In this document: positions 6,001-42,535 of the stretch, piece by piece
How positions within the stretch are numbered: position 1 is the stretch's first letter
Layout: each line of letters opens with the position of its first letter
Origin: Patescibacteria group bacterium
Lineage (GTDB): Bacteria > Patescibacteriota > Minisyncoccia > Phycocordibacterales > UBA918
Assembly: GCA_039188945.1 (NCBI GenBank)
Contig: JBCCYW010000003.1
Coordinates: 8,573 to 72,572, forward strand
DNA: 64,000 bases
Reading direction: 5' to 3'
Program-made: the position numbers and the translations under genes
The notes under the pieces: generated by a model
Told to the model about the DNA's origin: nothing
Database searches by the model: none
The model's input: only the letters and a program-made list of their open reading frames with translations

Positions 6001-9000
6001 GAGTAGTGCTCGGGGTAGCAAACTGTCGTGAAATAACACTGAGGTTCACATTGTTAGTGCCAACAATATTGTAGGCCCGAGTGTCCCAACCTTCATCACT
6101 AGCAACCTGAACTGCAACGTCGTTATCGACAAACCATGAACTAAGGACGTACGTATTGTTGACCGTTGTCACGACACTTGGAGTTTCCGGAGTTCCGTCA
6201 TCAAGCAGCTCTGTCCAGCCACTACTAACATCAATTGGTGTGGTCGTGTCGACATTCAAGAATGAACCAATCCAATACGAGTATCCTTGATTGTTATTAA
6301 GAGCGTTAAAGTCGTACGAAGTTGGTTCACTGCTAGCATCAGAAACCACCCTATACCAAATACCAGTATAAATATCATCATTGGCTGCGTCCCCAAATTC
6401 ATTAATAAGTGTCCAACCAGCTGGTGGCGTGATACCTGGATCATCATTCTTTCCAATAATGGCAACCAGAACTGAGTTATCTTCAATGGTGGTTGGTCGG
6501 GTGACTGTGGTGACTCCAGCCCCTGTTCCGACTCCACTGCCAGTCAGCTCATCCAAAAGGAAGATATCCATTGCTCCATTGGTGGCTTCAGAATTGAGAT
6601 ACGCAGTCACTTTCGGCTCGCCAACATACACAATGCCGGTCACTTCAAAACTTCCATCAGTCGGGTCACAAGCCGCTGTGTATGATGGACCACTATCGAG
6701 TACTACGGTCACATTTTGTGTGACACCATTACAGACACTGGCTGACGCGGTGGTTGAGCCATTATCGGCATAGACCGTACCGCGAATTGAGATTGCATAA
6801 TTACTATCGTCCCACTGAATTGTACCGGGATCTCCATCATCATCGTCAAATGATTCACCATAGCGATCACCAACCCCACCGCTAAAGAGCCAGAATGCAC
6901 TCGCCGTACCACTCGCCGTAACGTTTACTGAAGGACCTGAGACTGAGGCGAAATTAAGATCCGGATACTCTGTTGATGGTTGCGCATTGATGGTGCTTGC
7001 ATCAACGGTAACCGCTGTAGTGCCGCTCGCGATAGAGAAATCACCGTTGGTGAAATTAGTAACTGAAACAGAATCAAGGAGCTCAAAACCATTTACACCA
7101 GTACCGGTCATCGTAAAGTACTGCGCATTCAATGTTGCTCCCGAGAGCGACAAATCGAAGGTACCAGTGATCGCATCGACCGTTGTCGATGCCGTACTAC
7201 TACCAAGCATATTGAGAATGGCACTGCCAGAAAGACGAACTGACGTACCACTCGCAATCCGCACATCAACCTGACGAGGGCTACCGGAGATATCCGTGCC
7301 ATCAAAGTCAGTCGCACTACTCCAGTATTCTGCCCCAGTCGTTCTCGTGTAGTCACCAAAGATTCTAAGTTCACCATTATTGCCACCAAAATCTGGCATA
7401 TAGATTGATGACGTATCGAGAATGGTTGAGGTACTGATGGTTGAATTCCAGATCGTAATATCACTATCACCTGACACCTCGATCGTCGCATAGTCATCAC
7501 CTGAATCGAGTCGATCAGTGACAACATAATCGCCACCCGTAAGCACAAGGGTTGAATCAGTCCAGGTAGTTGAGGCCGCGGTGAAGCTGTTGCGGAAAAT
7601 GTTTTGTACCGACAAGGTAGTGTTTGGTGCCTGCACAAAACTATCACCCGTGACTAAGGTCGCATTATTTTCTACGGTCGTCGTACTTAGCGTCCAGCCA
7701 CCGCCAACGCCATTAAAGGAGAGGTTGTAGAAAATTCCCGTACCAAAGTCTATTGTCTCACCGAGATCGTTACTATCGAATGTAGTAGTGGCGTTATTGG
7801 CATCATAGGTACCGCTGTTGTTGAGCGCTGAACCACCAATTGTGAAGGTATCGCTCGGTGCGATGAGAAGCGCTCCAGAGACTGTTACGTCTCCATCGGC
7901 GTCTGCGTTGGCCTCGTTGAGTGTAAAGACCGGCGCTGCTTCGGTAAAGAGTTCTGAGCTAGTGGCGTAGAAACTCGTTGGTGCAAATTGATTATCGTAC
8001 TCAGTTGTAATCCATCCAGCGTCTCGCACGACTGATGAGAAACGGAGTTCATCGAGAAAACCATCAAGCTCTTCCCCGCCATCAAAGCCACCGAGAATTG
8101 AATCTTGGTCTTGCCCAATGATAAGTGCACCATCGTTAATATCGATTGCATCAAGTGTTTCGAGAGTTGGACTTTGATCATCTTCTTCAGCGTTAATGTA
8201 GAAGCGAACAATATTATTATCAGTATCACGCACTGTGTGGTAGGCTCGCCACGCACCATCGTTAATGAGTGAAATATCGACAAAATCAACCGTCCCTTCA
8301 TCAAACCATTCAAACTCATCACTATTATCAAGACGAATGAGAACCTCATTAAACTGTCCTGAGTTAGCACCTGATACAACAGCATGATCGTTCAATTCTG
8401 TTGTTTGGTACCACCACGACACAGTGACATCAGTTTGACCATCGAGAGTAGACGTAGCGATTTGAATGTAATCAGCATTCGCTTCGTCCCATTCTTGACC
8501 CTGGCCAATGAACCCAGTAGTTCCAGTAGCATCGACAAAGTCGTCACCATCTCGGCCATTGCCAGTACTGTCGGTGTAGACACCAATGTTACCGGTACCG
8601 GCGACTTCTTCTCCTAAGTGGTATACCGCCAAGTAATCATTAGTCCAAACATTATTTCGGCCGTACGTGTCAGTAGGGCTATAGGCAGTGGCGTTTACAT
8701 TGTTGTAATAGAGATAGAAGCGATTATCAGTACCGCTCGTCAGCATCGGTGCTTTAAAGTGTAGTTCTCCAGTCTGGGTATTCGTGTCGATGCTCACCAA
8801 CTCATAGGCGAGTTCGGTTGTTCCGTTACTACTTGTCATTCGAATATCAGCTCCATCGGCAGCAACGTTCGCCCAGAACACCGACCCAAGATCCGCTAGG
8901 TTTATATAGACCGGGAAGTCAATCATCGCTCCCGTAACTGAGGTTGAGGCAATATCAATCACCACCCGATCACTCCAGGCGGCTGCGTACCAACTATCAA

Positions 9001-12000
9001 GAACACCACTACCAAAGATTACGTTGTTAAAGGCAGCGTTATTAGTAGTAACATCAACACTACTGGCACTCGTAAAGACAACCGTGCCACCATTAGCAGT
9101 AAAGTCACCACTTCCGGAAACATCAAGCGTGTTCCCAATCGCTAACGCTCCTGACGGGAACGTCACTGTACCATCTTCAATAGCAAAGAGATTAGTAGTG
9201 GTCGCATTAGCATCAGTAAAGGTCCAGTCACCAGAGCCCGAGAACGTGACATCATAGAACTGATTCAGGAATTCTGTCCCGTTGAGGGTAATCACTTCAC
9301 TGCCAGAGCCATCAAACTCAACCTCGTTGTTGTTGTGCATGAACACTCCGTTGTTAATGAAGGAACCACCAACATTCAACTTACTTGTCGGCAATGCCAC
9401 CGTACCAGTCGCTACGGTAAAGTCACCGCTCACCACAACTGATGGTTCGGTGAAGGCTGGTGAAGTGGTGGCGTCGGCAAACGTGATATCGAAGAAACTC
9501 GAACCGCCTGAGGAAATATTGTGTGTTGCCTCGTCAGTCGTGGTCGCTGGGGTATATGCTTCGACACTGCTCGTAGCGTAGAAGTCAGTTGGCGTGAATT
9601 GGTTGCTGTATTCTGCCTCGACCCAGGAAGCGTCGCGGCTTGAGGTAGCGATACGGAGCTCGTCAATGTAACCCAAGAACGCACCACCACCAGCATTACC
9701 AGCCACCCGCAAACCACCTGTGTTTGAAGGGTTCTCATCAGCACCGCCTCCCTGCTGCACACTCTCAACTTGCACCCCGTCTTCATACACCAAGTTAAAC
9801 TGCGTCGTTGAAGTGACACCAATCGTAGTAAAGTGTCGCCAAATCGAAGGTGTTCTTGGGTTTATTGTATAAGCCGCCTGACCGTCATCACGACCAAAGT
9901 AGTGTAGGCCCGACGTACCGCCGGTCCAAGGCCTGAATTCAATATCATTTGGACCATCACCAGTTCCCCACTCCCAGACCGTCTCATTGTCAAAGTCATC
10001 CAAGAAGTACCATCCCGACGTCGTGAGACGATCACCAGATGTCCATGAGAAGTCGGTATCAATTAAATATCCAGCACTACCACTTGCATTAAGCGCTACA
10101 CCCACCTGACCACTGGTGGTTGCCATGGCTCCACCCAAAAGCAAGAGGTCGCGTCCTCGGCCAGAATCATCTGGAATAATAGTTCCAACGGTGCTGAAAT
10201 CATCATTAAAGTGATAGACCGCTTCATAATCTCGCCATACGGCGTAAGAACCATAGGTGTCAGTAGCTAGATAACCGTCGGCAGCAGGGTTATCAAAGTA
10301 GATATAGAAGGTTGTAGTAGCGGAGCTACTAATTGCATCTGCTAAGAAGTGAAGCTCACCAGTTTCTGCGCTGGCATCAAATTCAACCAGATCATATGGT
10401 AGTTCCGTCATACCATCATTAGTAGTAATTCTGATATCGTCACCGTCAGTTTGCACACTACCCCAGAAATCGCTACCTAAGGTAGAGAGGTCAACAAAAG
10501 TCGGGAAATTAGTCAGGGCACCACTAACTTCAGAATCTTGTACCACTATTGGTAATCGGCTTGCAAACGAGATGTCTGCGTACCAGTCTGCCGAACCTGG
10601 AATAGCGGCAGGATAAGACCGGTCGTCCGGAATAAATTCAACGTTACTCGAGCCAGCTAAGAAGGTGCCAGTGTTTGTCCAGTCACCGCCCACATAGAAG
10701 GCATACGTCGCACCAGACAATGTATCGTTCGCACCAATCGTAATATCATATGCTTTCACATCACTGGTAAGCGCTACAAACTTGCTCACGCCATCAATTA
10801 CCACATTACCGATATTTTGTAATGTTGTGCTCGATACATGATCATCGTTCCACGTTGCCGCAGCGTTTCCATCGAAGGTGGTAGTCGCCACTCCAAGCCA
10901 AGTAGCATTGGCACCAGTTGAGAGGTTACCCTGCAACGAAATATCATTTACACCTCGATCAAAGGTGCCACTCGCTACGGTTAGTGATCCGGACAGATCA
11001 AGAGCTGTTGCAATGGTATACGTCGCCGTACCCGCTCCAGCTCCCATTGAAAGGTTATGGAAATCAAGTGGCGATTCGGTACTAATGATGGTCTCACTTG
11101 AGCTGGTAGCCACCAAGTTGATGGTTGAGGTATCAGTAGAAGACGTGGCATTATTTTCCCACGAGCCACTCACAGTAAAGGTGTTGCCATCGAGCTCAAC
11201 GATACCGTCATTGACAAAATCATGCGTTGTCACGCTCACCGTCTGGGAACTACTAGCTGTGTATGTGGTACGAGGACCAATGTAGAGATTGGCATTGCCA
11301 CAACTACCGACCGCACACACATTGAGATTACCAGAGAGATCTACATCAAAGAAGATATCTTCATTACCTGAAATACTATTATCGTACGCGGCCAAATTAT
11401 TATTAAAGACCGTACTATCTTCATCGGCCTGGAGTGAAAGATGTTGTTCATAGAGTGTCACACCAGTAATATCACCAACCCCATCATACTCAAAGACCGC
11501 TACTGCCTCATCAGGATCAGCTGCTCCATCAACCCAGACAGTAATAATATCGCCAGCAAATGCGGTCACATTCGCAAGCGTCCAGGTGCCATCACCGGCA
11601 ATCGTACCGGTATTTAAGAGCGCTGGTCCGTTATTCACGGCTGCCATAATGGTACCGCTAGTAACTGGAGTCACTCGGTCATATTCATAGACAATGCCAG
11701 ACATATTGACACCTTCGCTCCATTCAAGTTGCCAATTATCAATTGATGGACACGAACCACCACCACAGGATAGGGTCGCAAATGGACGAATAATGCCATA
11801 GGTATTAATGTCGACATTGGTGAGATCTATTGGGCTGGTTGTGGTGCCAGTACTGTTGCCTGGAATTGCGCTATCTGGGATAAGTGCATACACTCCATCA
11901 CTTACTTGGTATTGCAGCTGATACAAAATATCACTGGTAGCTGGTGTACTATCTACCCAGGAGAAATTATCGAATTTTGGTCCTGCACCATCAGTGAAGA

Positions 12001-15000
12001 TAATATCCTCACCAGCAATCGTACCGGTCAAATCACCAGCATTAAGACGAGTCAGGTTACCAGCAGTATTTTCAAAGGCCACGATCGAAACAATTTCCTG
12101 AGTATGACCGTCAGCCAGTGAACCTTGTTCAGAGATACTGACAAAAATGTTTGAAGCATTGCTTGTGCCACCAAGATCCTTCTGAGCAAAACCACCCTGA
12201 CCACCATCTTCAGCATTATTTTGAATCAACGTAATTGCCGGTGTCGTTGAGAAGCCAGAAATACTTACTTGCGCCCCACCGTCATCAACATCACCATCGG
12301 GTGAGTTGAGGGATTGGAACACACTACCGCCCACATCAGTAGACGTCGTTGCATCTAACACTATGTAGTCGATATCTTCTGACCCAGAGCGACCACTTGT
12401 AGTATGACGACTTAACGCTAATGCGACCCTCATCTGACTACTAGTGACTTCAGTCTGGAAGGTTCCCCCACCATCTACGTGAGAAGATACCCACTCTGAG
12501 TCATTGTTTGTAGATACGGTAGTAATCGGTACTGGTATTCCTGAAAAAGCTGGTGTAAAGGTAATCACCTCACCAACAGTATTTGAGTATCCGTCTACTT
12601 GTGTGGCACTCACACTCTCTTGCGTACCAGCCAATAACCGAAAACCACTGCCACCATCATCAATCGTCCAGTCACCTGTTTCGGCTACCACATAATCTAC
12701 GTCGGTTGAGCCGGTAAAGTTGTTTTGGTAGTTATCTACTTTAATTTCAAATGAATTACTGGTCTTGTTACGAACCCGCACCGTTCGACCCGAAGCTTGT
12801 CCACCCGCTTGGAAGTCAAATTCAGGAGTACTCACCACCACCATATCGTTGTAAATATTTTGTGTATTGACCGTCGTCCAATTGTTGTTGGTGAGGGAAA
12901 TCGTTCCAAATTCACCGACAACATCAGTAATTTCTACTGAGTCAGAACTCGAGGCAATCACTCCAGCCAGTTCACCTTGATCAAATTGTTCCTGAGTCGT
13001 CTGGAACCAGGTTGATACTGAGACTGACGTTGAGGCGGTAAATGAATCTGGTTCTGACCACGGACTAAAGCTGTCGTTACCATTAGGGTCCTTGGCCCGC
13101 ACTCGCCACCAATAGGTAGTGTTGTTGGTGAGTGGCGTCTGGGTTGTGTAGGTGACAGTTGCTCCAGAAGCATACGGATTACCAGCACTGAAACCAGGAC
13201 TCGTGCTTGAGTTAAAGGTAGATGAGCTGGTGAGGAAATCAATGTCAGTACTGATTGATAGCTCATACTCAAGATTGTCGCCTTGTGGATCAGTTGTCGT
13301 GAAGTCGAATACCGGACTCAAGCCTGCGAACTTCTCGTTATCAAACGAATCACCGAGTGTCGGTGTGTTTACCCGAAGCCCCCACTTCACCGACCACTCC
13401 TGCAGTGAGACGGTTGTTCCTTCGAAGGTAGCTACTAAACGAATTTCGTTATAGACACTCGTATCAAGTTCAGAAATACTAATTGGTGAGGAAGTCGCGC
13501 CAATACTATTATTTGGAATCTGTGAATCAGGAATCAAGGTCCAGGTACCGCTATCGTTAAACTGCACCTGGACCGAACTGGTACCACTCGTAACCGTATC
13601 ACTCCAAGAGACTTCACCCCAGGCGTTGCCAAAGGTTGCATCATCAAAATCGATCGCCGTTGACGTCATGGTGGCAGGCGATGAAGCGAGTGCGACTTCC
13701 CCACTTGAAGTCGACATATTGCTAAGTTCGTTGGTTGAAAATTGGTCACCAGTTGTTTGGTACCACTCAGTAACTTCAATCAGGTCCTCGACGGTGAAAC
13801 TATACGGTGATGACCACTCGCTGGTCGTGGCTGAACCATTTGGATCATCAGCCCGCACTCGCCACCAGTACGTTGTACCCGTTGCTAAGCTTGTACCTGA
13901 TGTAAACCGAACCTGATTACCTGACGAGAATGGAGCCTTATCACCATTATTGTTGATGTTTTCAAATTCGAGGAAATTATCGTCAGAATTACGATCAATC
14001 AGTGGGCTAGCAAAATCTACGGTGTTCGCAACTTGCACCTGATAATCAATATCATCACCAGCAATGTCAGAAGACACAAACTCAAGCATCGGGGTTCTGG
14101 TAGCAGTCCGCTCGTTATCAAAGAACGCAAGCAAAGTTGGCACATTTGGTGGACCAACCGTCTCGAGTTGTGGGTATAAGGTATAGGTTGTCAGTGGCGC
14201 ACCACCACTTCGGGTCATGCGGAAACAATAGTTGATATTAATATCAACATTGGTCGCCTGAAGAACCCAGTCAAACTCAGCCACTTGACCAACGCCAATT
14301 TCATTTTGAATAAGGTTAGAAAGATTTCGCTCCTCGTACGTTCCAAACACCGTTGAGGATGCCAGGGTGGTAGAAGATAGAATGCGTCCATCTTGAATGA
14401 GCGGAATATCAAAACCTGAGAAGGCTGCGGTCGTACTACCCGGTTGCCCAACTTCAAACCAATTACTTTCAGCAATCAAAGAACATTGATCAGCCGCCGT
14501 CGCAGCACCATATTCAAGTCGGAATGCAGCAGAATTTTCAGTACCAGTAGCGGTACTGGCTTCAATATTCATTCGTAAGCGGATAACATCGCCATCCTGG
14601 AGTGCACCAGACCCAGTAATTGATTCTCCTTCAGTCACATTTGAATCACTAATTGGCCAGGTGGAAGTTGGAGTTTCGGTATTACCATTTTGATACCACA
14701 AGAATGAGAGTTGTTCATAGTCAGCGTCATTGGCCATTTCCTGTTGACCAAACGCAATAGTAAAGGCATCTGCTCCAAACTTACGTGCCTGCACGGTACC
14801 AACCAAGTTCTTCTCGTCACCAACGTTAGTACCGCTGTTCTGGATTGAACGATCTTCATAAATAGCATAAAACGGCACACCATTAGTCGACACGACCTGA
14901 TAGCCAGCTGGGTAGTTGAGCGTATCTCCATCAGTTCCTCCATTAAAGAGCACTTTGCCCGGATCTGTTGTATTAGGGGAACAAGTTGCACTCTCAATAA

Positions 15001-18000
15001 AACCACCCGTACTATCTTGGATCTCAAGCGAGACACTGCCAAAGCGAGGTGAACACACAACTGCTACATACGCCGCATCATTAGTCATGGCGTAACGAGT
15101 ACCAAACTCCATTTGTGGCCAGAACATTGTTGACTCATTACCGTCAGCGTCAGCTTGTTGAAGAGCCGTAACCGGTACCGTACTGCCGGTATAGCGAGCA
15201 GCCGGACCGGCTCCTTCAGAGTCAGCTCCGGTATCACATGTCACCTCAGCTTCATGATCACCCCGACTGACTGCAATACCGGTAGCACTTGAGCCGTCTG
15301 AACAAAACACATCAACTGTTGTACCCTGGACAGCAGAAAGATGAATGTTTTGTGTGTAGACACCGAAGAGGTCGCGAGTAGTTGGCGGATACGAAACAAT
15401 ACCATCGCCAGGAGTTGAGTTCTTATGTGTTACCACTGCTGGTAAGGTTGAGGTAATAATTGCACCAGCCCCATCAACTCCTTGACCAGAATCAGTAATA
15501 TCCAGATTAGCAGTGCCAGCCGAAGATGTCGCTACATTGAAAGTAGCACCAGCCGAGGCTGAAGCCGCTTCAAACACCCGTACAGTCGTGCTACCGAATG
15601 GAGAGAATGCGTACCAATCATTAACAGCCCGGTTCGTACCGATAGCATGGGTGGTGGTAGCAAAGCTAATTGGTGCGATCGAGTCAGTACTATCTTGCGT
15701 GTTTCCAGTTTGACCAGAGACAGTACCAGAAATAGGACCGAGAGCGCGAATGATGGTGTTTTCATCGACTGTCGTCGTACTAATCGACTCACCCTGGTTT
15801 AACGTTGTGGTCGCCAGACCATCAAAAGAGACCTGATTGTTATCGATGAGGCTCTGAATCGAAACTGAAGACACATCATCATCGACAATGTAGAACAGTT
15901 CAGTCAATCGACTATACGTAAAAGTGTCCACTTCATTACTGGTCGAAGTCACTCCAGAAGCACCGTAGTACAACCAAATAAGGGCTGTGCCACCGGCTGG
16001 AATCTCATCTACTTGCACCCATATATCGGCCTCTTGGGTTGATGAGCTGAAGTGCTGGATCCAGTAATCGAGCTCAACAAAATCAACCTCCTGAAGGGTT
16101 TCGGCGGTAGATGTACTTATGAATGTCGTCGGATTAGCGAGCGTTTCATATTCAAGATCAGCCCAATTGTCATCTCGAGTCGTGCTGGCAATACGCAATT
16201 CATCCATAAGACCGATAAATTGGTTTGAGGTATCAAAACTACCGACGGTCGTTTGTTCCTGACCGATAACCAACCCACCGTTCGCGACCAAAATTGCATC
16301 AATCGGTACCTCATCTTGAGTGCCGTTACCATTCTCACCATCAGGCACTCCGTTAAGGTAGAACGCCACCGTATCCTCAGAATCATCACCAGACAGGAGG
16401 AAGTGATCCCATTGATCATCACCCCAGTTTTGCCCATTGTCATAGCCTGTACTTTCGTTGTTAGCACTATGGACGAAGAAAATTTCATCGTCACCCGAGC
16501 CATCAAACTCAAGAGCAACTCGAAACTCATCATCTTCAACGACATTCGCAGCACTCAAGATAGTTCGCTCATCGGTCGCAGCTGCAACCGGCACTTTATA
16601 GAAACCAGAGACAGCGATATCAGTCACACCGGTAAGTGCCTCATCTGGCAGGTCAATATGGTCACCACTCGAATCACCAAGCTCGAGACCGCGACCAACA
16701 ATACCAGTCGTGTCATCAGAGGAGTTCTCATCATCACCATGGTACTCATTACTGGTTGAATCAAGATACACCTCATCATTACCAACCCCAGCTGCATCTT
16801 GGTCAAAGTGGTATACCGCAATAAAGTTATTGGTCCAGACATTGTGTGCCCCGTACACATCATCATCGGCATACGCTAAGGCATCTGGGTTGTCAAAGTA
16901 AATATAGAACTCATTATCCTCAGTACTCGAGAGGTCAGTTTTGAAATGTACTTCACCAAGACCACTTCCCGTATCTACTCGGACCACTTCACGTGGCAAC
17001 TCAACTCCGGCTCGAGTCGTGATGCGAATATCTCGTCCATCACTCGCTACCCCGGAGAAGAAGGTACTACCGAGGGTTCCAAGATCAAGATATACCGGGA
17101 AATTCGTAATATCGGCATCCACATTATCCCGTGAGATAGTGAAGAGCTGGCGCTGATTCCAGCTCGTGCTGTACCACACATCACCACCCGCTGGTACCGC
17201 AATCAGATCAGTACTCGTACTATAGAAACTAGTTGGATTCGCTTGCGTCGTGTACTCAGCGGCAATCCAGCCATCAGTTCGTACCCCATCAGCAAAGCGC
17301 GCTTCATCAACAAACCCATCGAGCAGTTGGTTGCCGCCGTTATTTTGTTCCACATTAGTGTCCTGCTCACTACCAATATTCAACCCATTGATATCAAAGG
17401 TCTGATCTGCATTATCAATATTAGTGTCAGCATAGAGCAGTGCGCCATCGACATACTGCCTCGTCTCATCGTCAAATTCATCACTAGATCTTGTATATAC
17501 ATACTGACGCCACGCACCATCACCAATATTAGACAGCAATACCTGATTGCCGTTTTCCTGACTATTATCGATGAATTGTTCCATCTGAGTAGCGTTTTCA
17601 ATCCAAGCAATCCACTCGTTGTTTTGGGACGTATTAAATCCAGAAAGAAGGGTGTGGTCTAACGAACTCAGTGAGTTGGACGTTTGATACCAGACCGAAT
17701 AGGTCATCTCAAGTTTGCTATCAGCCACTGCAACCGGAATATTAATATGGTCGACCAGGTCAACGCCGGAGGTCGTAGCAATATCAAACTCAACCCCGTC
17801 ACCAAGGCGCCCGGTCGTGCCAGTAGCTGATGTGTCATCTTCAGCGTTAAAGCCATTGCTCGTGCTATCAAGATACTCTCCGATATTATTCTGTCCCGGT
17901 TGGCCTTGATCTTGGAAGTGATACACCGCTGCATAGTTATTGGTCCACACGTTCTGAGAACCAAATTCAGACGTACTCGCGTAGGCGGTGGCATCAGGAT

Positions 18001-20971
18001 TATCGAAGTAAAGGTGAAAGGTACTATCGTCAGCCGTGTTAAGAACCGGCGCCCTAAAGTGCAACTCACCCTGATCACTACCAGTATCAATCCAAACTAA
18101 ATCAGTTGGTACTTCAGTAGCACCATCACTTCGCGTTACTCTGATATCACGACCGTCATTCGTAACGCCACTCCAAAAATCGTCACCAAGTGTCGACAGG
18201 TCAACGTACACTGGGAAATCAACCAAGGTCTCAGTAACTGATGTCGAAGCGATGTTAATTGCCACTCTTCCCTCCCAATTGAGATTGTAGTTGTTCTCAA
18301 CTACCGGACCATTCTCCGGGAAGAGGTTGTTTTCTACCCGCTCTTGAATAAACCGAATATCACTACCATCGTCAGCAACGTTCGTCCAGAAGTCACCAAG
18401 AGCACTGTCAATCTCAAAGAATATCTGCTGCTCAGTCAGTGTCTCGGTGCTGTTTGTGTTATCAATTTGAATTGGGATTCTGTACTGCCACTGACTTGAC
18501 CAGAATGGATCCAAGAGACCGTACTCACTACCGCCCACTGCTTCGATCCAATACTCACCACTGGAGAAAGCTGGGAAACTAACTTCCATCTTGAAGTACT
18601 TAGTTTCTCCAGGACGAATCGCAAACGTGTCAGGGGTGTGTCCATCTACCCTAAAGCTGTTCGGCACAAATTTTCGGTCAGGGCCAAAACCAAAGAACTC
18701 GCCTACTTGTTCAATAAAGCCAGGTTCTGGGAGTGTGCCTACAGCATATGTGGCAGCTTGCCAACCACCTGCATACTTAACCACTTCGTGTTCTCGTACT
18801 TTTACATTATCAACGTGACAAGCTGTGTTATCGCCATCAATTGAATTACAGGCCCGAACAATATTAGTGTTGCGACAGACATATGTCTGGGGTGTTTCGA
18901 TCGCTTCAGTTGTAGTAGCTTGTTCGCTAGTTCCAGTTGCAAGTGCTGTCGCTTGCGTGAACAAACGAGCATCTGTCAGAAGTTGAGAGGTTGTCGTCGT
19001 AGCAGTTGTGCTGGCTGATTCAGTATCTAGCGAAGCTGCTTCGGTCGAAGTAGCTTGGCTACCTTCGGACGGCTCAGATGAAGTAGCAGTTGCTTCTGGT
19101 AGCACTACAGACTCAGCACTAGTTGTTGCTTCAGTTTCGTCCGCCTCAAGTGGATCAACCAACGCCTCAGGAGTGAATGCCCGAGACATATCAAACAGTG
19201 AGTCAGAGATCGGCTCGCCAGAGTACTCCCATCCATCAGCGCAGTGATAGACAAATGGTCTGTATTCAGGAATTGTGACTTGTGTTGGTTTATTCTGATT
19301 CCATTCTTCTAGTGAGACAACCTCTCCCTTGGCATGCGGGAAGTAGGTTTGCAGTGAAAACGTATCTGTATTATTTGAGGTGTTGGTGACATTGAAGTAG
19401 GTCGTGATTTCGGTAAGACCGTTATACGTCAGCTCATCTGATTTGATGATCAAGGTTTCATCGCTATTTTCGTCGGTATTGTCAAACGTAATTTCACGCC
19501 CATCAGGTAGCACCAACACATCTCCTACCAGCGGATCAGGATTAAAGCCATCATCTTCGAGCAAAGTTGCAATGTCAATTGGTTCACCAGTATTTTCGAG
19601 TGTAAACAATTCTAACCACGCACTTTCGACAAAGAGATACTCGACGTGTTCTGGATTATTAGTGAAGCGAAGTTGGAACGTCAGATCTTTGAGAACAGCT
19701 GGGTCTTCAATTGTTGGTAGCGCAAAGAGATAGTATCCGCCATTAATACCATTTGACTGCTCTTCATCAAGTAGAATTTGACCATTTTCTACCCACGACT
19801 CTCCACCATCAAATGAGTAGCGAAGCTCTAATGACGTTACCTCATCACGAGTCTCTTTAGGGGCGCCAGCAAATGACAACCTGAATTGAGCACCGGTAAG
19901 TTCCAGCCCGTCTTCAAAAATTGGCATTGCAAAACCGGACAGAGTAAGTGTGTGGAGTGAACAGTTTTCGACACAGTCGCTCGTGCTCGTCGCCAGACTG
20001 CTGTCGTCAACCGTTTCACTGGTTGTAGCTGAAGACGGAACCTCGTCTATAACTACCTCACCCAGCAGCTCCTCAACCTCGTCTGTAAATTCATTTTCAG
20101 AACTTGTTGTTGTCGCCACCTCTTCCTCCTCAGGCACCTCTTCAACTAAATTTTCTTGTGCACTCAGTGTCTCAGTCGGTAGTATCTCAGTTACTGTTGT
20201 AGTACTTGCTGCTGCTTCTGATTCAGACACAATCTCTTCTGTATCTGTCTCAATGTCTTCACTACTAACAACCGTTTCAGTAGTGGTAGCAGCAGTAGTA
20301 AAGCCAAACACCCGAGTAACAGCACCGAAAGCAAAACTGAACAACGAATCGACTGTCTGGAGCACAGTAGTTGTTGAGGCCGCTTCTTCAGCATCTAGCT
20401 CGTTTGAGGACGTGGTCGCAGCTGAATCTGACTCAACAACATCCGGTACCTCAGGAGTTACCTCGTCTGCCTCAGAAATAGTAGGTTCGGTTGTTGTTGC
20501 AACCACCTCCACTGTTGTCGTTCCATTTTTTACCTCTGGCTCTGCGGGTACGTCAGGGGTGCTCGTGGCAACCACCTCAGTCGTCGTACTAACTTCAGTG
20601 GTAGTAGTAGCTGAAGAAGTAGCACTACCTAAAGAAATTACCGGCTCCTCTACAAGCATCACTTCTTCGTTTTCAAATTCATCTCGAAGCTCGCGCAACG
20701 TTTGATCACCAGTACTTAAGTACGCAGAATTAATTTCATTAAACTCTTGTGATAGGGCATATTGGTCGAGATTTTGGAAGGTCACCGTATCAGCATTCAC
20801 CCAGCCAACAGATTCAATTGACTCAGGGAAAACATTGACGCTACTAACCACAATCTGGCTTTCAGAAAACTGAGCAAACACTGCATATCCTGCAAAACTA
20901 GTTACCACCAGTGCTGTAAGAACAGAAACTTTCTTAATTCCAAACAAAGAAGCACTATTAAACCGCCTCAA
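1..20971 (-). CDS. Giant secreted surface protein, 3'-truncated by the window edge (>6,900 codons in window). N-terminal signal peptide; repeated DUF2341-like (FPxYxDLxxLGxxFWxxVxxDGxDIRxT...GELHFKA...YFDNPDAxAY) and LamG/concanavalin-like modules
   Basis: Own translation of the minus strand in frame with codon first bases at positions =1 mod 3. Open at the N-terminus (TTG at 20971 giving MRRFNSASLFGIKKVSVLTALVVTSFAGYAVFA-QFSE; in-frame GTG alternatives at 21043 and 21055; in-frame TGA at about 21149). Open for about 7.5 kb read codon-by-codon, and open again at positions 1-250. The ORF track lists no complete ORF in this frame over 21 kb: all 24 listed minus-strand ORFs here share one other frame (end =0 mod 3) and the plus-strand ORFs are low-complexity shadows. 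The track finder appears to need ATG plus an in-window stop, so it would miss this gene. Confidence 0.72.
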   Translation of the reverse strand, partial: MRRFNSASLFGIKKVSVLTALVVTSFAGYAVFAQFSESQIVVSSVNVFPESIESVGWVNADTVTFQNLDQYALSQEFNEINSAYLSTGDQTLRELRDEFENEEVMLVEEPVISLGSATSSATTTTEVSTTTEVVATSTPDVPAEPEVKNGTTTVEVVATTTEPTISEADEVTPEVPDVVESDSAATTSSNELDAEEAASTTTVLQTVDSLFSFAFGAVTRVFGFTTAATTTETVVSSEDIETDTEEIVSESEAAASTTTVTEILPTETLSAQENLVEEVPEEEEVATTTSSENEFTDEVEELLGEVVIDEVPSSATTSETVDDSSLATSTSDCVENCSLHTLTLSGFAMPIFEDGLELTGAQFRLSFAGAPKETRDEVTSLELRYSFDGGESWVENGQILLDEEQSNGINGGYYLFALPTIEDPAVLKDLTFQLRFTNNPEHVEYLFVESAWLELFTLENTGEPIDIATLLEDDGFNPDPLVGDVLVLPDGREITFDNTDENSDETLIIKSDELTYNGLTEITTYFNVTNTSNNTDTFSLQTYFPHAKGEVVSLEEWNQNKPTQVTIPEYRPFVYHCADGWEYSGEPISDSLFDMSRAFTPEALVDPLEADETEATTSAESVVLPEATATSSEPSEGSQATSTEAASLDTESASTTATTTTSQLLTDARLFTQATALATGTSEQATTTEAIETPQTYVCRNTNIVRACNSIDGDNTACHVDNVKVREHEVVKYAGGWQAATYAVGTLPEPGFIEQVGEFFGFGPDRKFVPNSFRVDGHTPDTFAIRPGETKYFKMEVSFPAFSSGEYWIEAVGGSEYGLLDPFWSSQWQYRIPIQIDNTNSTETLTEQQIFFEIDSALGDFWTNVADDGSDIRFIQERVENNLFPENGPVVENNYNLNWEGRVAINIASTSVTETLVDFPVYVDLSTLGDDFWSGVTNDGRDIRVTRSDGATEVPTDLVWIDTGSDQGELHFRAPVLNTADDSTFHLYFDNPDATAYASTSEFGSQNVWTNNYAAVYHFQDQGQPGQNNIGEYLDSTSNGFNAEDDTSATGTTGRLGDGVEFDIATTSGVDLVDHINIPVAVADSKLEMTYSVWYQTSNSLSSLDHTLLSGFNTSQNNEWIAWIENATQMEQFIDNSQENGNQVLLSNIGDGAWRQYVYTRSSDEFDDETRQYVDGALLYADTNIDNADQTFDINGLNIGSEQDTNVEQNNGGNQLLDGFVDEARFADGVRTDGWIAAEYTTQANPTSFYSTSTDLIAVPAGGDVWYSTSWNQRQLFTISRDNVDADITNFPVYLDLGTLGSTFFSGVASDGRDIRITTRAGVELPREVVRVDTGSGLGEVHFKTDLSSTEDNEFYIYFDNPDALAYADDDVYGAHNVWTNNFIAVYHFDQDAAGVGNDEVYLDSTSNEYHGDDENSSDDTTGIVGRGLELGDSSGDHIDLPDEALTGVTDIAVSGFYKVPVAAATDERTILSAANVVEDDEFRVALEFDGSGDDEIFFVHSANNESTGYDNGQNWGDDQWDHFLLSGDDSEDTVAFYLNGVPDGENGNGTQDEVPIDAILVANGGLVIGQEQTTVGSFDTSNQFIGLMDELRIASTTRDDNWADLEYETLANPTTFISTSTAETLQEVDFVELDYWIQHFSSSTQEADIWVQVDEIPAGGTALIWLYYGASGVTSTSNEVDTFTYSRLTELFYIVDDDVSSVSIQSLIDNNQVSFDGLATTTLNQGESISTTTVDENTIIRALGPISGTVSGQTGNTQDSTDSIAPISFATTTHAIGTNRAVNDWYAFSPFGSTTVRVFEAASASAGATFNVATSSAGTANLDITDSGQGVDGAGAIITSTLPAVVTHKNSTPGDGIVSYPPTTRDLFGVYTQNIHLSAVQGTTVDVFCSDGSSATGIAVSRGDHEAEVTCDTGADSEGAGPAARYTGSTVPVTALQQADADGNESTMFWPQMEFGTRYAMTNDAAYVAVVCSPRFGSVSLEIQDSTGGFIESATCSPNTTDPGKVLFNGGTDGDTLNYPAGYQVVSTNGVPFYAIYEDRSIQNSGTNVGDEKNLVGTVQARKFGADAFTIAFGQQEMANDADYEQLSFLWYQNGNTETPTSTWPISDSNVTEGESITGSGALQDGDVIRLRMNIEASTATGTENSAAFRLEYGAATAADQCSLIAESNWFEVGQPGSTTAAFSGFDIPLIQDGRILSSTTLASSTVFGTYEERNLSNLIQNEIGVGQVAEFDWVLQATNVDININYCFRMTRSGGAPLTTYTLYPQLETVGPPNVPTLLAFFDNERTATRTPMLEFVSSDIAGDDIDYQVQVANTVDFASPLIDRNSDDNFLEFENINNNGDKAPFSSGNQVRFTSGTSLATGTTYWWRVRADDPNGSATTSEWSSPYSFTVEDLIEVTEWYQTTGDQFSTNELSNMSTSSGEVALASSPATMTSTAIDFDDATFGNAWGEVSWSDTVTSGTSSVQVQFNDSGTWTLIPDSQIPNNSIGATSSPISISELDTSVYNEIRLVATFEGTTVSLQEWSVKWGLRVNTPTLGDSFDNEKFAGLSPVFDFTTTDPQGDNLEYELSISTDIDFLTSSSTFNSSTSPGFSAGNPYASGATVTYTTQTPLTNNTTYWWRVRAKDPNGNDSFSPWSEPDSFTASTSVSVSTWFQTTQEQFDQGELAGVIASSSDSVEITDVVGEFGTISLTNNNWTTVNTQNIYNDMVVVSTPEFDFQAGGQASGRTVRVRNKTSNSFEIKVDNYQNNFTGSTDVDYVVAETGDWTIDDGGSGFRLLAGTQESVSATQVDGYSNTVGEVITFTPAFSGIPVPITTVSTNNDSEWVSSHVDGGGTFQTEVTSSQMRVALALSRHTTSGRSGSEDIDYIVLDATTSTDVGGSVFQSLNSPDGDVDDGGAQVSISGFSTTPAITLIQNNAEDGGQGGFAQKDLGGTSNASNIFVSISEQGSLADGHTQEIVSIVAFENTAGNLTRLNAGDLTGTIAGEDIIFTDGAGPKFDNFSWVDSTPATSDILYQLQYQVSDGVYALIPDSAIPGNSTGTTTSPIDLTNVDINTYGIIRPFATLSCGGGSCPSIDNWQLEWSEGVNMSGIVYEYDRVTPVTSGTIMAAVNNGPALLNTGTIAGDGTWTLANVTAFAGDIITVWVDGAADPDEAVAVFEYDGVGDITGVTLYEQHLSLQADEDSTVFNNNLAAYDNSISGNEDIFFDVDLSGNLNVCAVGSCGNANLYIGPRTTYTASSSQTVSVTTHDFVNDGIVELDGNTFTVSGSWENNATSSTDTSTINLVATSSSETIISTESPLDFHNLSMGAGAGTATYTIATALDLSGSLTVASGTFDRGVNDISLQGNLSTGANATWLGVATTTFDGNAAATWNDDHVSSTTLQNIGNVVIDGVSKFVALTSDVKAYDITIGANDTLSGATYAFYVGGDWTNTGTFLAGSSNVEFIPDDRSYPAAIPGSADWYADISFASRLPIVVQDSEVSGALTNFPTFVDLSTLGSDFWGSVQTDGDDIRITTNDGMTELPYDLVEFDASAETGELHFLADAISSSATTTFYIYFDNPAADGYLATDTYGSYAVWRDYEAVYHFNDDFSTVGTIIPDDSGRGRDLLLLGGAMATTSGQVGVALNASGSAGYLIDTDFSWTSGDRLTTSGWYFLDDFDNETVWEWGTGDGPNDIEFRPWTGGTSGLHYFGRDDGQAAYTINPRTPSIWRHFTTIGVTSTTQFNLVYEDGVQVESVQQGGGADENPSNTGGLRVAGNAGGGAFLGYIDELRIATSSRDASWVEAEYSNQFTPTDFYATSSVEAYTPATTTDEATHNISSGGSSFFDITFADATTSPAFTEPSVVVSGDFTVATGTVALPTSKLNVGGSFINNGVFMHNNNEVEFDGSGSEVITLNGTEFLNQFYDVTFSGSGDWTFTDANATTTNLFAIEDGTVTFPSGALAIGNTLDVSGSGDFTANGGTVVFTSASSVDVTTNNAAFNNVIFGSGVLDSWYAAAWSDRVVIDIASTSVTGAMIDFPVYINLADLGSVFWANVAADGADIRMTSSNGTTELAYELVSIDTNTQTGELHFKAPMLTSGTDNRFYLYYNNVNATAYSPTDTYGRNNVWTNDYLAVYHLGEEVAGTGNIGVYTDSTGNGRDGDDFVDATGTTGFIGQGQEWDEANADYIQIATSTLDGQTDVTVSWWYQTTELNDHAVVSGANSGQFNEVLIRLDNSDEFEWFDEGTVDFVDISLINDGAWRAYHTVRDTDNNIVRFYINAEEDDQSPTLETLDAIDINDGALIIGQDQDSILGGFDGGEELDGFLDELRFSSVVRDAGWITTEYDNQFAPTSFYATSSELFTEAAPVFTLNEANADADGDVTVSGALLIAPSDTFTIGGSALNNSGTYDANNATTTFDSNDLGETIDFGTGIFYNLSFNGVGGGWTLSTTTVENNATLVTGDSFVQAPNTTLSVQNIFRNSFTAASTTWTDSTLVLTGGDYVVTDRLDSGDDYATIEVSGDSDITIWNSTISTSTILDTSSIYMPDFGGNNGELRIFGDYTRTTGAEYWSSATDFDGTDISGSPRQVDVRIASGTSVRLSGSAILNMLGSSTASTTVDAITGTFDLSLSGATLNAQYFTMTGTGVNGFELLDSVSVTNFTNGDFSIASGTTAVTVDASTINAQPSTEYPDLNFASVSGPSVNVTASGTASAFWLFSGGVGDRYGESFDDDDGDPGTIQWDDSNYAISIRGTVYADNGSTTASASVCNGVTQNVTVVLDSGPSYTAACDPTDGSFEVTGIVYVGEPKVTAYLNSEATNGAMDIFLLDELTGSGVGTGAGVTTVTRPTTIEDNSVLVAIIGKNDDPGITPPAGWTLINEFGDAANDDIYTGIWYRVVSDASSEPTSYDFNALNNNQGYSYWIGSFLNVDTTTPIDVSSGWTELLDDGTPETPSVVTTVNNTYVLSSWFVDNDVAVQVASDEGWDTRAYNIVGTNNVNLSVISRQFATPSTTQSIEMVGVPGTRDPHVGTFALQPAATPPTATTSVSAAVVTQTPLGTPTDPVYEDIAVRDSSFDQQQFATGATVVLTTPSVVTNDVLVVIIGKDDDPTVSAPAGWTEIATRGENAEADVFGGAWYRVVTDATTEPATHTFTNNDGTDEIAYWIGSLSGVDVTSPLDVATTWDYQLNDNSPAAESITTVTDKAQVFAAWMVIGDTNVDMPLDWETLVEDSLSPAGNTDRLFAVSTKLQEEFGATGDAEITSLGNQDSMTIQFAMRPQEQAVPSRIEGFDIYANQVIVRHEDIAALTIADMTRFDNDNDSDIPFTASTSTSPDLLTVLPGSGLYVWDSKQFIPGGEINLSGYGTTEQDGTLSIGNGGTLTMAGTDPVTIGGGFYGENGAVFSGASSTVTFTATNTGQTIDSRASSTFTFYDIDFTGVGGGWAVQTPIISQTGINLATGTVSGVSDVTVESGSFSGNGLVNMTGGTVAIERNNTLGGTQGWTFNNLTLGNVTDSDSTTMASDATTTVRSVLTISTNHLLDGGEATFDLTGSGNVFATNGTFQQGTSTVRYSGATPNIDRTPYYNLRIDTDAGGDVVATGPSTNLQVFNSLTVGNQGTSTLDLNTNDPALAVAELIYIGQLGTIEASDTATLEAFGSWDNDGVFAANGGTVRFGEVVSNEAIAAGSSPFADLTIDGLGTFTMTEHATVTGDMVLGAGNFTMSGGQVLSVGNTFTNSMLGGATNWTGSTLRLYGDQAYDVNAKTTSQTYGAIVTASSTQPRFWNATSTSITTNDASSVYSRNHAGVDGALNIYGEYRNSGFDDYWSYNEDFDGAALGGGARQAAVLVEAGGSVLYTGGSLTVLGSSTATTSIDALTVGTYDFRLGGSTDVNMNYYQFRDTTADGLTFSGSPDVTDLSHGDFEIAIAGGSGMTVGGSVISANPAPNYTNIRFATTTAISAFNVTATGSAASSWRFVNVPGNLAGEDFDNDPGDDPGLLVWEDSAAIINIEGTVYSDDGVTESGIGICDGATANIFLSMDGLTFASTSCAIGSADYTFSGISYGLSDVITVYIGNGAGSGVVVSQDPLSSIGNMDIYENRVIVRHESGDPLTIDDMDTWDSDDDADIPFTATGGSPDTLVLPSNHKLVVWESKTFAPDGDVTVSGGGAGADFDGTVELLSNATFQMAAGEEHSIGGSLITAAGAVFDASTATTTFTTTGAARTININDDDFYNLVFNGTGSWTVTDTTLTTGSNFLIQNGAVTLPSGTTTIGASFVNSGGSFDSNGGRIVFDATSSGNTVTFGGSDTRSVLFAGTGGGWTMADTNATTTDYFRVATGSVTLPSGVLAVGADFIVNDTITNNSGTVRLATSSGAYTVTLSGNDLNNLFIDNFGSYTFSDVSASLLGDLDITTGASLAIGDGTFSIGGSLAATGTLATASSSILFNSGDTGELIYPGNNVFYDVVFGGALGGWTVGANATVTNNLSLSAATTYIQSSGTTLYVGGVFTNNIGAATTWLGSTLVLDSGSIYETNSKSTPAELYDTVILGENTDVSTWNASSTNLTVPVTSSLYSQDHANNDGDLAIFGDYNITSGTEYWSYATDFDGAALGGSSRAVDVFIASGATTTLVSGTLEIIGIANSTTTISTPGSGQYSIQVLAGVFNAEYFDFEDLDTNGLQFSGTPTITSLDNGGFTQALNGASLITLASTTLNANAGLIITGSRFTDGGFTGGINVNLDATTTNSWTFTGHTGNLSGEVYDQDGTDACSSIRWDDSDCLLTEQAHYRWRNDDGGEGAPPGTWYDNNWSSRQRIRIDNNDLSTTTNAAVKMVVPYDADMQTDFDDLRFTDSSGVTEIDHWQERFSTGVSADVWVEVPTLGADKVTEIYMYYGNVSASSTSSSSEVFIVVDDFEDNNLDEYGGDKGLFSTNATFAFGGGFGLDTSGFETSRAPDGIFSTTSVVSQGEIIRYMQYVDTTPGAGAENEACAMFGVQTPGLDNDNYGVCLELFGTERISLVKNVEST

Positions 20972-21086
20972 TTGGTCTTTGAGCGCTGTAAATATCGATA
21001 TATTGAATTTTTGTCTTGTTTTGTGAGACTCTTTTTTGTTCACACCACAAGCCACCCAAGATTCTGCGCAGGCAGAAATTGGGCTA

Positions 21087-21098
21087 ATTATAATTATA
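21087..21098 (-). promoter_or_regulatory. Two overlapping TATAAT -10-like hexamers upstream of the giant gene
   Basis: Minus-strand reading gives GATATAATTATAATTAGCCC just downstream of the 21101-21123 hairpin and upstream of candidate start codons. No clear -35 box. Confidence 0.35.
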
Positions 21099-21100
21099 TC

Positions 21101-21123
21101 GCGCAGTCCTAGATGGACTGCGC
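21101..21123. terminator. Perfect 9-bp inverted repeat gcgcagtcc-tagat-ggactgcgc. Probable terminator of the 21159..22739 gene, or an operator
   Basis: Seen directly. Lies 36 bp downstream of the stop of the upstream minus-strand gene and is followed on the minus strand by an A/T-rich tract. Confidence 0.5.
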
Positions 21124-21158
21124 GATACGCCTCAAATATGTGGATTGGTCAGTGTTTT

Positions 21159-26052: not shown

Positions 26053-26053
26053 A

Positions 26054-26878: not shown

Positions 26879-26905
26879 TCTCTACAGTATACGACCGGGC
26901 TAGGG

Positions 26906-42421: not shown

Positions 42422-42535
42422 AAAAATAGCCTCTAAACTACTAATCCCACACACAGAGAAAATGCGTGTACGCCCATCCTACACCTTTATTTCATTCCTG
42501 CAAAGTTTATGAAATGGGATTAGCTTTTAGTCAAG

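Follow-up and report, generated by a model that had tools for sequence, protein, structure and literature searches.

Ultrasmall CPR bacteria depend on attachment to other cells, for which giant surface proteins are the main candidates. DUF2341 is stated in the literature to occur in PilY-type adhesins. It has also been counted among Patescibacteria proteins of more than 4,000 amino acids, for which the authors infer a role in adhesion or host interaction and speculate that domains are reshuffled (PMC11809585). In archaea, a role as the adhesin domain of pilus tips is predicted for DUF2341 (PMC4858521), and in M. maripaludis a screen for transformation defects hit a DUF2341 gene of the epd pilus locus (PMC10133366). 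For DPANN, surface proteins rich in LamG have been proposed to mediate host attachment, with the LamG domains of these giant proteins binding host glycans (PMC10266531). The DUF2341 and LamG families have already been described, as have their pairing and their occurrence in giant CPR proteins, and the cassette that joins them is common, not a new type of system.

Here, we describe a giant gene in a 64,000-nucleotide stretch of Patescibacteria DNA (the window, to which all coordinates refer). A first-pass annotation, made from the sequence alone, had flagged a region of tandem DUF2341-like and LamG-like modules. Our analysis maps one giant protein into four separable, well-modelled cassettes, a mapping that does not overturn current views.

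The giant gene and its product

The flagged repeats occupy the middle of a single giant gene on the minus strand. Its stop-free frame spans window positions 2 to 21148 (7,049 codons) and is truncated at the window start; the start-codon candidates are GTG at 21043, TTG at 20971, and TTG at 20947. In 30 related loci (L001-L002 and L004-L031), the frame stops 741-766 amino acids past the point aligned to residue 6820, which puts the complete protein at about 7,500 amino acids; L003 was excluded from this estimate because its locus runs off the end of its contig. About 515 C-terminal residues, as estimated from these relatives, would thus lie outside the window. Judged by the relatives of its conserved end, the gene most likely belongs to an ultrasmall, Paceibacteria-like member of the Patescibacteria (CPR), in which it would encode a giant surface protein of about 7,500 residues. 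The product, with at least 7,049 residues in the window and so well above 4,000, contains six DUF2341-type domains, one of them split, and chunked self-BLASTP reveals many further repeated beta-rich modules besides the DUF2341-LamG cassettes. The features discussed below are as follows.

21159..22739, minus strand: upstream neighbour, a cohesin-domain protein of 526 aa (Pfam Cohesin, 31.1 bits); not part of the modules
2..21043, minus strand: predicted giant surface-protein gene; 3' end beyond the window edge
20864..20947, minus strand: putative N-terminal signal/anchor segment (FGIKKVSVLTALVVTSFAGYAVFAQ), from a hydropathy scan
18344..18505, minus strand: N-terminal half of the split "host" DUF2341 domain, aa 882-935; profile match, ends in DGSDIRF
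17216..18298, minus strand: module A, DUF2341-type beta-sandwich plus type I LamG, aa 951-1311; self-BLASTP, alignment, and profile
16112..17182, minus strand: module B, DUF2341-type beta-sandwich plus type I LamG, aa 1323-1679; self-BLASTP, alignment, and profile
15914..16078, minus strand: C-terminal half of the split host DUF2341 domain, aa 1691-1745; Pfam and profile, VELDYWIQHF...IWLYYG
9572..10588, minus strand: module C, DUF2341-type beta-sandwich plus divergent type II LamG, aa 3521-3859; self-BLASTP, Pfam, and HHalign
7961..8998, minus strand: module D, DUF2341-type beta-sandwich plus type I LamG, aa 4051-4396; the copy chosen for the structure model
290..691, minus strand: canonical DUF2341 domain, aa 6820-6953; Pfam 66.5 bits, model positions 1-78

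Like most of its full-length relatives, the protein begins with a basic stretch and one hydrophobic helix; in those relatives the basic stretch is short, and the helix is followed by a conserved VHVFP...GW.N..T.TFQN block. In the hydropathy scan, this helix is the sole strongly hydrophobic stretch 3' of the candidate starts, with one marginal other at residue ~5120. The composition is very acidic and Thr/Ser-rich (pI 4.05, 12.6% Thr, 0.7% Lys). With a single N-terminal signal/anchor helix, such a body, and no other clear membrane segment, the giant protein is probably Sec-exported and anchored at its N-terminus, from which it would extend over the cell surface as a long fibre.

The scanned neighbours encode cohesin, Hsp20, dockerin, FGE-sulfatase-like, WxLIP, DinB-like, GH18, CAP, GroEL, and RNase J proteins. 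At locus L079 in another genome, the related giant gene likewise has a cohesin-domain gene upstream of it on the same strand. The three tandem FGE-sulfatase-like genes (25249-27781) were considered as targets of a diversity-generating retroelement and rejected, as a search revealed neither a template/variable repeat pair nor, in the scanned ORFs, a reverse-transcriptase domain.

Four DUF2341-LamG modules

Chunked self-BLASTP of the giant protein recovers four mutually similar modules (pairwise E values of 6e-33 to 7e-52), which bears out both the internal repeat structure and the number of copies proposed in the first-pass annotation; a fifth full module is absent from the part of the gene within the window. 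The four blocks recognized earlier fall on the FPVYVDL...DIRxT...GELHF cores to within ~20-30 nt. The alignment contains every motif quoted there, in the forms FP(V/T)Y/FVDL, DGxDIR, GE(L/V)HF, FY(L/I)Y(F/Y)(D/N)N, NVWTN(N/D)(Y/F)xAVYH, DST(S/G)N, and DE(L/A)R.

Pfam scores vary among the copies. Measured by hmmscan against gathering scores of 23.4 bits for DUF2341 (PF10102) and 27.6 bits for Laminin_G_3 (PF13385), module D is above threshold for both domains (33.8 and 56.8 bits), and module C is above it for DUF2341 (25.7 bits), with no Pfam match to its LamG half. Module A scores 35.7 bits for Laminin_G_3, above threshold, and a sub-threshold 18.5 bits for DUF2341; module B has sub-threshold matches to DUF2341 (17.1 bits) and Pentaxin (21.6 bits). 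Despite these sub-threshold DUF2341 scores, the self-BLASTP matches make modules A and B unambiguous paralogues of C and D, and DUF2341 can be assigned to all four, as had been anticipated. The anticipated LamG partner is found directly in A and D, in B as the sub-threshold Pentaxin match only, and in C through HHalign, which aligns the type II LamG with the type I LamG of A, B, and D at 99.1% probability (E = 1.5e-18). A further family named in the first-pass annotation, Beta_helix (PF13229), has no match at E <= 0.01 when the protein is scanned as two overlapping halves. NCBIfam likewise gave no match for modules A and D, the C-half of the split domain, or the C-terminal DUF2341 domain.

Each cassette is a DUF2341-type beta-sandwich packed on a LamG/pentraxin-like jelly roll, and structure modelling of module D predicts that the two form one rigid unit. 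Among PDB profiles, the cassette matches pentraxins and, as the best hit, the S-layer domain protein 4qvs (E = 2.8e-8). The AVYHF block, previously taken as the end of the DUF2341 part, is indeed present, but its assignment changes: it forms a strand in the two-domain model and a disordered coil in the DUF-only model, and it probably opens the LamG sandwich as its first strand.

A module pair nested in another DUF2341 domain

Modules A and B are flanked by the two halves of a further DUF2341 domain. The N-half covers positions 10-57 of a profile built on the conserved C-terminal DUF2341 domain (and positions 3-56 of the module profile), while the C-half covers the complementary positions 62-115 and matches Pfam DUF2341 at 51.6 bits (model positions 14-66). 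When the two halves are joined, they align end to end with the profile at 54.5 bits. The N-half is conserved in P0119, P0120, P0160, P0143, P0168, and L079, and relatives retain both halves with one or two modules in between. As read from these profile alignments, the split domain carries modules A and B as an insertion in a hairpin loop.

The canonical DUF2341 domain near the other end of the protein opens the family's conserved C-terminal region of ~745 aa. Matches to this region in 31 loci (42-62% identity, 226-230 aa) come mostly from metagenome-assembled genomes of Patescibacteria, including Paceibacteria, Nomurabacteria, and Kaiserbacteria. In most relatives the protein terminates in a ...HTG.N.FTA..D-like tail. 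Nine relatives are collinear over their full length (5,310-7,696 aa) and have 2-5 modules each, so the comparison of copy number called for in the first-pass annotation indicates that it varies, but slowly. The LamG subtype at a given position varies between relatives. The nested module count is one in some relatives and two in this window.

Distribution of the cassette

How widely does the cassette occur? An exhaustive search with the cassette profile matches 30,571 protein-cluster representatives, often with multiple copies in giant proteins. A word-indexed protein search returned 109 matches, most of them 330-650 aa, and at least one of these (P0002) represents part of a giant gene broken by a frameshift. 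Giants are therefore under-represented in this list when it is taken alone, a bias that the exhaustive search corrects. We also scanned viral contigs, using the four-module alignment as the seed. The cassette occurs in phage loci with a capsid gene (L080) and with a portal/minor head gene (L081), in structural-locus proteins of ~340 aa, and the phage cassettes lie at the N-terminus of candidate fibre proteins. Viral DUF2341 folds are present in BFVD. Among cultivated relatives, Minisyncoccus archaeiphilus carries DUF2341 loci (L044 and L046). PHROGs gave no match for the window modules and matched one of the four small homologues scanned (P0074, to phrog_3545 and to the virion structural protein family phrog_701). 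In P0107 and P0109, the cassette is fused to ExbB.

The earlier description of the DUF2341-LamG pairing as typical of giant archaeal and CPR adhesins is supported by published giants (PMC11809585) and by the many multi-copy giants found here, but it is too narrow, given the small phage proteins and the ExbB fusions. What emerges is an apparently portable extracytoplasmic binding unit, which is also found in phage structural loci, archaeal virus proteins, archaeal type IV pilus loci, and ExbB-type fusions. Together, the nesting in a split domain and the phage and ExbB occurrences give some insight into how giant genes are built. It is tempting to go further and see a self-contained insertable unit that multiplied inside the surface loop of another DUF2341 domain, with phages and the giant adhesins of ultrasmall bacteria sharing one pool of exchangeable binding cassettes. 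We offer this only tentatively and consider it doubtful as it stands. If true, nested duplication would be an undescribed growth route for such giant genes, and host recognition by CPR symbionts and by phages would draw on one common cassette pool.

Divergence and function of the copies

The first-pass annotation had also raised the idea that near-identical DNA repeats drive recombination, a claim that does not hold for these copies. RecA-type homologous recombination needs far higher identity than they have. Codon-aligned, the modules share 44-51% nucleotide and 33-45% amino-acid identity, the longest exact DNA word common to any two is 14 nt, and a DNA repeat finder reports only stretches of 38-42 nt (76-87% identity) between copies; at such values they cannot drive homologous recombination today. 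The DUF half of module B is 56% identical to that of module 2 of L079, and the DUF half of module C is 63% identical to that of L079 module 3, both higher than for any pair within the gene (at most 51%). Modules B and C are thus closer to their positional counterparts in another genome than to their own paralogues, which indicates that there is no concerted evolution here. By these sequence comparisons, the modules are old, diverged duplicates. A contingency locus, in which near-identical repeats recombine frequently and the gene rapidly changes size, would find some encouragement in the range of module numbers across the full-length relatives, in the one or two modules at the nested site, and in the reshuffling speculated for such proteins (PMC11809585). 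It would also fit L079, where the 69% identity of two adjoining LamG halves points to a younger duplication in that lineage. However, the low identity of the window copies, without any long exact word, and the closer match of modules B and C to another genome refute this reading for the present sequence and make it highly improbable.

We consider it likely that the cassettes are old duplicates, with A and B nested, and that they form part of a fibre bearing lectin-like LamG halves on what we infer to be a surface protein. By analogy of fold and context, the LamG halves are probably lectin-like binding sites, which would recognize glycans or glycoproteins of the host cell. Several cassettes on one fibre would then most likely bind host-surface glycans multivalently, with the DUF2341 halves probably serving as a rigid pedestal. 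Identity between copies is lower in the LamG halves (24-42%) than in the DUF2341 halves (44-52%), and the LamG halves form two subtypes, a pattern suggestive of several binding specificities on one fibre. The cassettes might instead be structural spacers or surface-layer self-association units, with no specific ligand, that lengthen or stiffen the fibre. This fits the S-layer annotation of 4qvs, the residues invariant across the four-module alignment, which look mainly structural or core, and the many other repeated beta-rich modules of the protein. However, the faster divergence of the LamG halves and their two subtypes are better explained by diversifying binding surfaces, and in phages the cassette occupies the N-terminus of candidate fibre proteins encoded in structural-gene loci, which also weighs against mere spacing; we regard a spacer role as unlikely. 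Glycoside hydrolases and polysaccharide lyases also adopt the concanavalin-like fold, and the cassettes could on this ground be enzymes rather than lectins, with the giant protein degrading cell-wall or capsule polymers of the host, a role that we rate as quite unlikely.

Comparison with known systems

Domain 4 of AbnA (5ho0/5hon), CBM40, and the pentraxins resemble the LamG halves at the level of fold, with sequence identity of only 9-20%, and unlike the modules here they have no preceding DUF2341 domain. The DUF2341 proteins of archaeal type IV pilus loci (arCOG03508; PMC4858521, PMC10133366) resemble our protein in their DUF2341 domain and in being predicted to act as extracellular adhesins, whereas the organism here is a bacterium. 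Assignment to the type IV pilus tip adhesin class was rejected, as a prepilin-like class III signal was not found at the N-terminus of the giant protein and pilus genes were absent from the scanned neighbours (ORFs > ~260 aa, a size limit at which small pilins could be missed).

The giant LamG-rich proteins of DPANN (SPEARE-type and multi-LamG proteins of nanohaloarchaea; PMC10266531) are likewise giant, acidic, predicted to be Sec-exported and membrane-anchored, and encoded by ultrasmall symbionts. This likeness is at the domain level only: SPEARE-type proteins carry a VirB4/TraG-like ATPase domain, which was not found in the window-encoded part of our protein (Pfam scans, E <= 0.01). The Pfam architecture DUF2341 - Laminin_G_3 - MotA_ExbB, in which the cassette extends the N-terminus of ExbB/TolQ-like "generic ion transporter" A subunits (PMC12505986), has the identical two-domain order, and ExbB-type cassettes are detectable by sequence in P0095, P0107, and P0109 (E values of 2e-8 to 4e-6). 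There, one copy sits on a proton-channel subunit of ~415-650 aa; here, four copies occur in a giant, probably Sec-exported protein with no channel domain.

Closest are the giants of the Patescibacterium danicum paper (PMC11809585), which share with our protein the Patescibacteria origin, as far as its relatives indicate, a giant size (above 7,000 amino acids here), several DUF2341 domains, a proposed role in adhesion or host interaction, and domains whose number and position vary between relatives. Those giants carry DUF2341 and/or FhaB, whereas no FhaB-type domain is found here at the Pfam thresholds used. No full-length homologues were reported for them, whereas this protein has collinear relatives, and its modules pair DUF2341 with LamG as a fixed cassette, with one cassette pair nested in a further DUF2341 domain.

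The giant gene and its ends

The region flagged by the first-pass annotation (8760-18220) lies within one stop-free minus-strand frame of 7,049 codons (window 2..21148). Because this frame runs off the start of the window, the C-terminus of the giant protein is missing. Across 226-230 aa, the last 230 window-encoded residues are 42-62% identical to sequences at 31 loci. These are mostly Patescibacteria MAGs (Paceibacteria, Nomurabacteria, Kaiserbacteria, Parcubacteria) or are labelled "uncultured Candidatus Saccharibacteria," and a few bear other or no phylum labels. In 30 of the 31, the frame ends 741-766 aa past the point aligned to window aa 6820 (the other locus is cut by a contig end), so by comparison the whole window protein should be about 7,500 aa. 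When we read two of these C-termini (loci L001 and L004) in full, there was no obvious C-terminal membrane segment.

At the other end, the frame has a single strongly hydrophobic segment, FGIKKVSVLTALVVTSFAGYAVFAQ, at aa ∼68-95. Most full-length relatives begin with a short basic stretch, followed by one hydrophobic helix and a conserved VHVFP...GW.N..T.TFQN block. The hydrophobic segment and these matching N-termini therefore place the start at GTG 21043, TTG 20971, or TTG 20947. With a calculated pI of 4.05, the protein contains 12.6% Thr, 0.7% Lys, and just 24 Cys residues. It is probably exported by Sec and then either remains anchored at its N-terminus or has its signal cleaved.

Four divergent modules

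Chunked self-comparison of the giant protein gave four mutually similar modules, with pairwise E-values of 6e-33 to 7e-52:

aa 951-1311, minus strand, module A
aa 1323-1679, minus strand, module B
aa 3521-3859, minus strand, module C
aa 4051-4396, minus strand, module D

Their positions agree with the four copies first read from the translation, and all of the motifs quoted for those copies are found in the alignment. The repeat structure is therefore real, far beyond chance. The copies had also been described as near-identical DNA repeats that could drive recombination, but codon-aligned copies are only 44-51% identical in nucleotides (33-45% in amino acids), their longest common exact DNA word is 14 nt, and a DNA repeat finder returned only stretches of 38-42 nt at 76-87% identity. 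Such low DNA identities refute both the near-identity and the rapid recombination built on it. The LamG halves diverge faster (24-42% identity) than the DUF2341 halves (44-52%).

Against the Pfam gathering score of 23.4 bits, DUF2341 is above threshold in modules C (25.7 bits) and D (33.8 bits) and below it in A (18.5) and B (17.1). Laminin_G_3 (gathering score, 27.6 bits) exceeds its threshold in A (35.7 bits) and D (56.8 bits), but not in B, whose second half has only a sub-threshold Pentaxin match (21.6 bits), or C, for which the Pfam scan gave no LamG-type match. In searches of the PDB, the four-module profile matched the S-layer domain protein 4qvs (E = 2.8e-8) and pentraxins, always via the second half of the module. 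Two subtypes of second half can be told apart, type I (A, B, and D) and type II (C and most copies in relatives), and HHalign matched them to one another over 196 columns (99.1% probability, E = 1.5e-18). On this profile evidence, the second half of module C is thus a divergent LamG domain too.

An AlphaFold2 model of module D, from an 87-sequence alignment, has a pLDDT of 88.3 and a pTM of 0.89, the latter suggesting that its DUF2341 and LamG domains form one rigid body. The AVYHF block, originally read as closing the first domain, forms a strand only in models that include the LamG half and is most likely part of the LamG sandwich instead. Altogether, everything observed at first reading holds except the DNA identity, and the first-pass interpretation was largely right.

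A cassette probably nested in a split domain

Three further DUF2341 pieces lie outside the modules:

aa 882-935 (window 18344-18505), minus strand, host DUF2341 N-half (C-terminal-domain profile, positions 10-57)
aa 1691-1745 (window 15914-16078), minus strand, DUF2341 fragment, host C-half (Pfam 51.6 bits, model positions 14-66)
aa 6820-6953, minus strand, canonical DUF2341 domain (Pfam 66.5 bits)

We built a profile from the C-terminal DUF2341 domain of the window protein and 30 relatives. The aa 1691-1745 piece corresponds to positions 62-115 of this profile and is complementary to aa 882-935; joined, the two align to it end to end at 54.5 bits. Modules A and B sit exactly between these halves, at the hairpin that follows the DIRF strand. 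Both host halves recur with two modules between them in proteins P0119 and P0120 and in the frameshifted related gene of L079, a Paceibacterota MAG locus (GCA_041389005.1), and with one module in P0160, P0168, and P0143. This pattern looks like a cassette that entered a host DUF2341 domain at a loop, giving a domain within a domain, and was later duplicated in place.

An exhaustive profile search found nine collinear full-length relatives (5,310-7,696 aa). Five of them have two modules, one has three, two have four, and one has five, so module copy number does vary between lineages. Compared with their positional equivalents in L079, the DUF2341 half of B is 56% identical and that of C 63%, whereas no pair within the window exceeds 51%. 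The duplications are therefore older than the split of the two lineages, with no concerted evolution here. Within L079, two neighbouring LamG halves share 69% identity, pointing to a more recent duplication or conversion in that lineage. This L079 relative of the giant gene (3943-17110) is split in its annotation into about eight successive ORFs on one strand, owing either to sequencing errors that shift the frame or to decay of the gene.

Other repeats and genomic context

The giant protein contains more large internal repeats at window ∼700-7970 (aa ∼4393-6808): a ∼450-aa unit present three times (aa 4393-4860, 5379-6113, and 6416-6808), a ∼200-aa unit present twice (aa 4878-5072 and 5119-5313), and an additional pair (aa 5320-5474 and 6120-6271). 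These have no Pfam match, and Beta_helix (PF13229), suggested at first reading, was not detected in the Pfam scan of the giant protein. Two Ig-like copies at window 12941-14122 (aa 2343-2484 and 2602-2736; Pfam Ig_Rha78A_N, 46.1 bits) each end in a WWRVRA..DPNG motif, and aa 2492-2594 and 3042-3148 form another repeat pair.

Upstream on the same strand are genes for a cohesin-domain protein, Hsp20, a dockerin-domain protein, three FGE-sulfatase-like paralogues, a WxLIP-like protein, a DinB-like polymerase, GH18, CAP, and a multi-domain surface protein, including:

21159-22739, minus strand, cohesin-domain protein, immediately upstream of the giant gene
23266-25245, minus strand, dockerin-domain protein, two genes beyond the cohesin gene
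25249-27781, minus strand, three tandem FGE-sulfatase (C-type-lectin-like) paralogues (267, 274, and 291 aa)
36992-42454, minus strand, second large surface-type protein of 1,820 aa (DUF642, SdrD_B, CarboxypepD_reg, Lamin-tail; weaker PA14)

Roughly 40 kb, from the giant gene to the 1,820-aa gene, appears to be given over largely to cell-surface proteins; the remainder of the window is ordinary bacterial chromosome (GroEL, RNase J, M48 peptidase, one tRNA-Ser). The cohesin and dockerin proteins may form a pair for surface assembly that is connected with the giant protein, in whose window-encoded part neither domain was detected. In L079, too, the related giant gene has a cohesin-domain gene upstream. 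The FGE-sulfatase/C-type-lectin-like fold is often a target of diversity-generating retroelements in CPR genomes. A search of 21000-64000 for template/variable repeat pairs gave none, picking up just a 46-nt motif conserved among paralogues, and the scanned ORFs include no reverse-transcriptase domain.

Spread of the cassette

At E ≤ 1e-3 the four-module profile matched 30,571 cluster representatives; 18,403 of them remain at E ≤ 1e-10 and 3,613 at E ≤ 1e-30. Among the best 150 of the 30,571 matches, 28 are at least 4,000 aa and 15 at least 6,000 aa, and a single protein can have up to 21 matched stretches. Matches in a word-indexed protein search are mostly 330-650 aa. As the division of the L079 gene illustrates, small "DUF2341 domain-containing protein" entries can be giant-gene fragments. 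Among the word-search matches, P0002 is part of a frameshifted giant gene that follows a cohesin-domain gene, the order also seen in the window, and P0041 (340 aa) comes from a small but complete gene with a phage capsid gene 3.5 kb upstream.

Cassette genes in phage and viral loci (proteins of 340-1,714 aa) are:

L080, 6001-7023, phage/viral cassette gene
L081, 7992-9716, phage/viral cassette gene, with a portal/minor-head gene upstream
L082-L089, phage/viral cassette genes; the protein in L087 has three DUF2341-type copies

In an IMG/VR scan, nine viral contigs encode the cassette in frames of 362-1,714 codons, and in most the first copy begins within ∼40 residues of the N-terminus. BFVD contains DUF2341-fold proteins from archaeal viruses. 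Given the position downstream of capsid or portal genes in two loci, the viral proteins are candidate tail-fibre or receptor-binding proteins. Three word-search matches are fused to, or named as, MotA/ExbB channels, an architecture already noted with the cassette (PMC12505986).

Possible function and comparison with known systems

As judged from sequence, the N-terminus is of an export type and the composition of an extracellular type. The LamG fold is nearest to carbohydrate-binding domains, and the cassette is a two-domain unit, predicted to be rigid, that is reused in phage structural loci. We propose that the protein would be a cell-surface fibre displaying four lectin-like sites, possibly of differing specificity, for binding host-surface glycans, with DUF2341 serving as a pedestal. 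Alternatively, the cassettes could have a catalytic role or be purely structural.

A glycan-binding fibre can be set beside published proposals. Of 2.1 million NCBI Patescibacteria proteins, 149 exceed 4,000 aa, and 82 of these have FhaB and/or DUF2341; the authors inferred adhesion or host interaction and speculated on domain reshuffling (PMC11809585). DUF2341 proteins occur in archaeal type IV pilus loci, with a predicted tip-adhesin role (PMC4858521), and a transformation-defect screen recovered insertions in one DUF2341 gene of the epd pilus locus (PMC10133366). In nanohaloarchaea, giant and multi-LamG surface proteins are host-attachment candidates (PMC10266531). Both the DUF2341-LamG pairing and its presence in giant proteins from ultrasmall prokaryotes are thus on record, and the copy-variable, nested insertion and the link with phages add modestly to that picture.
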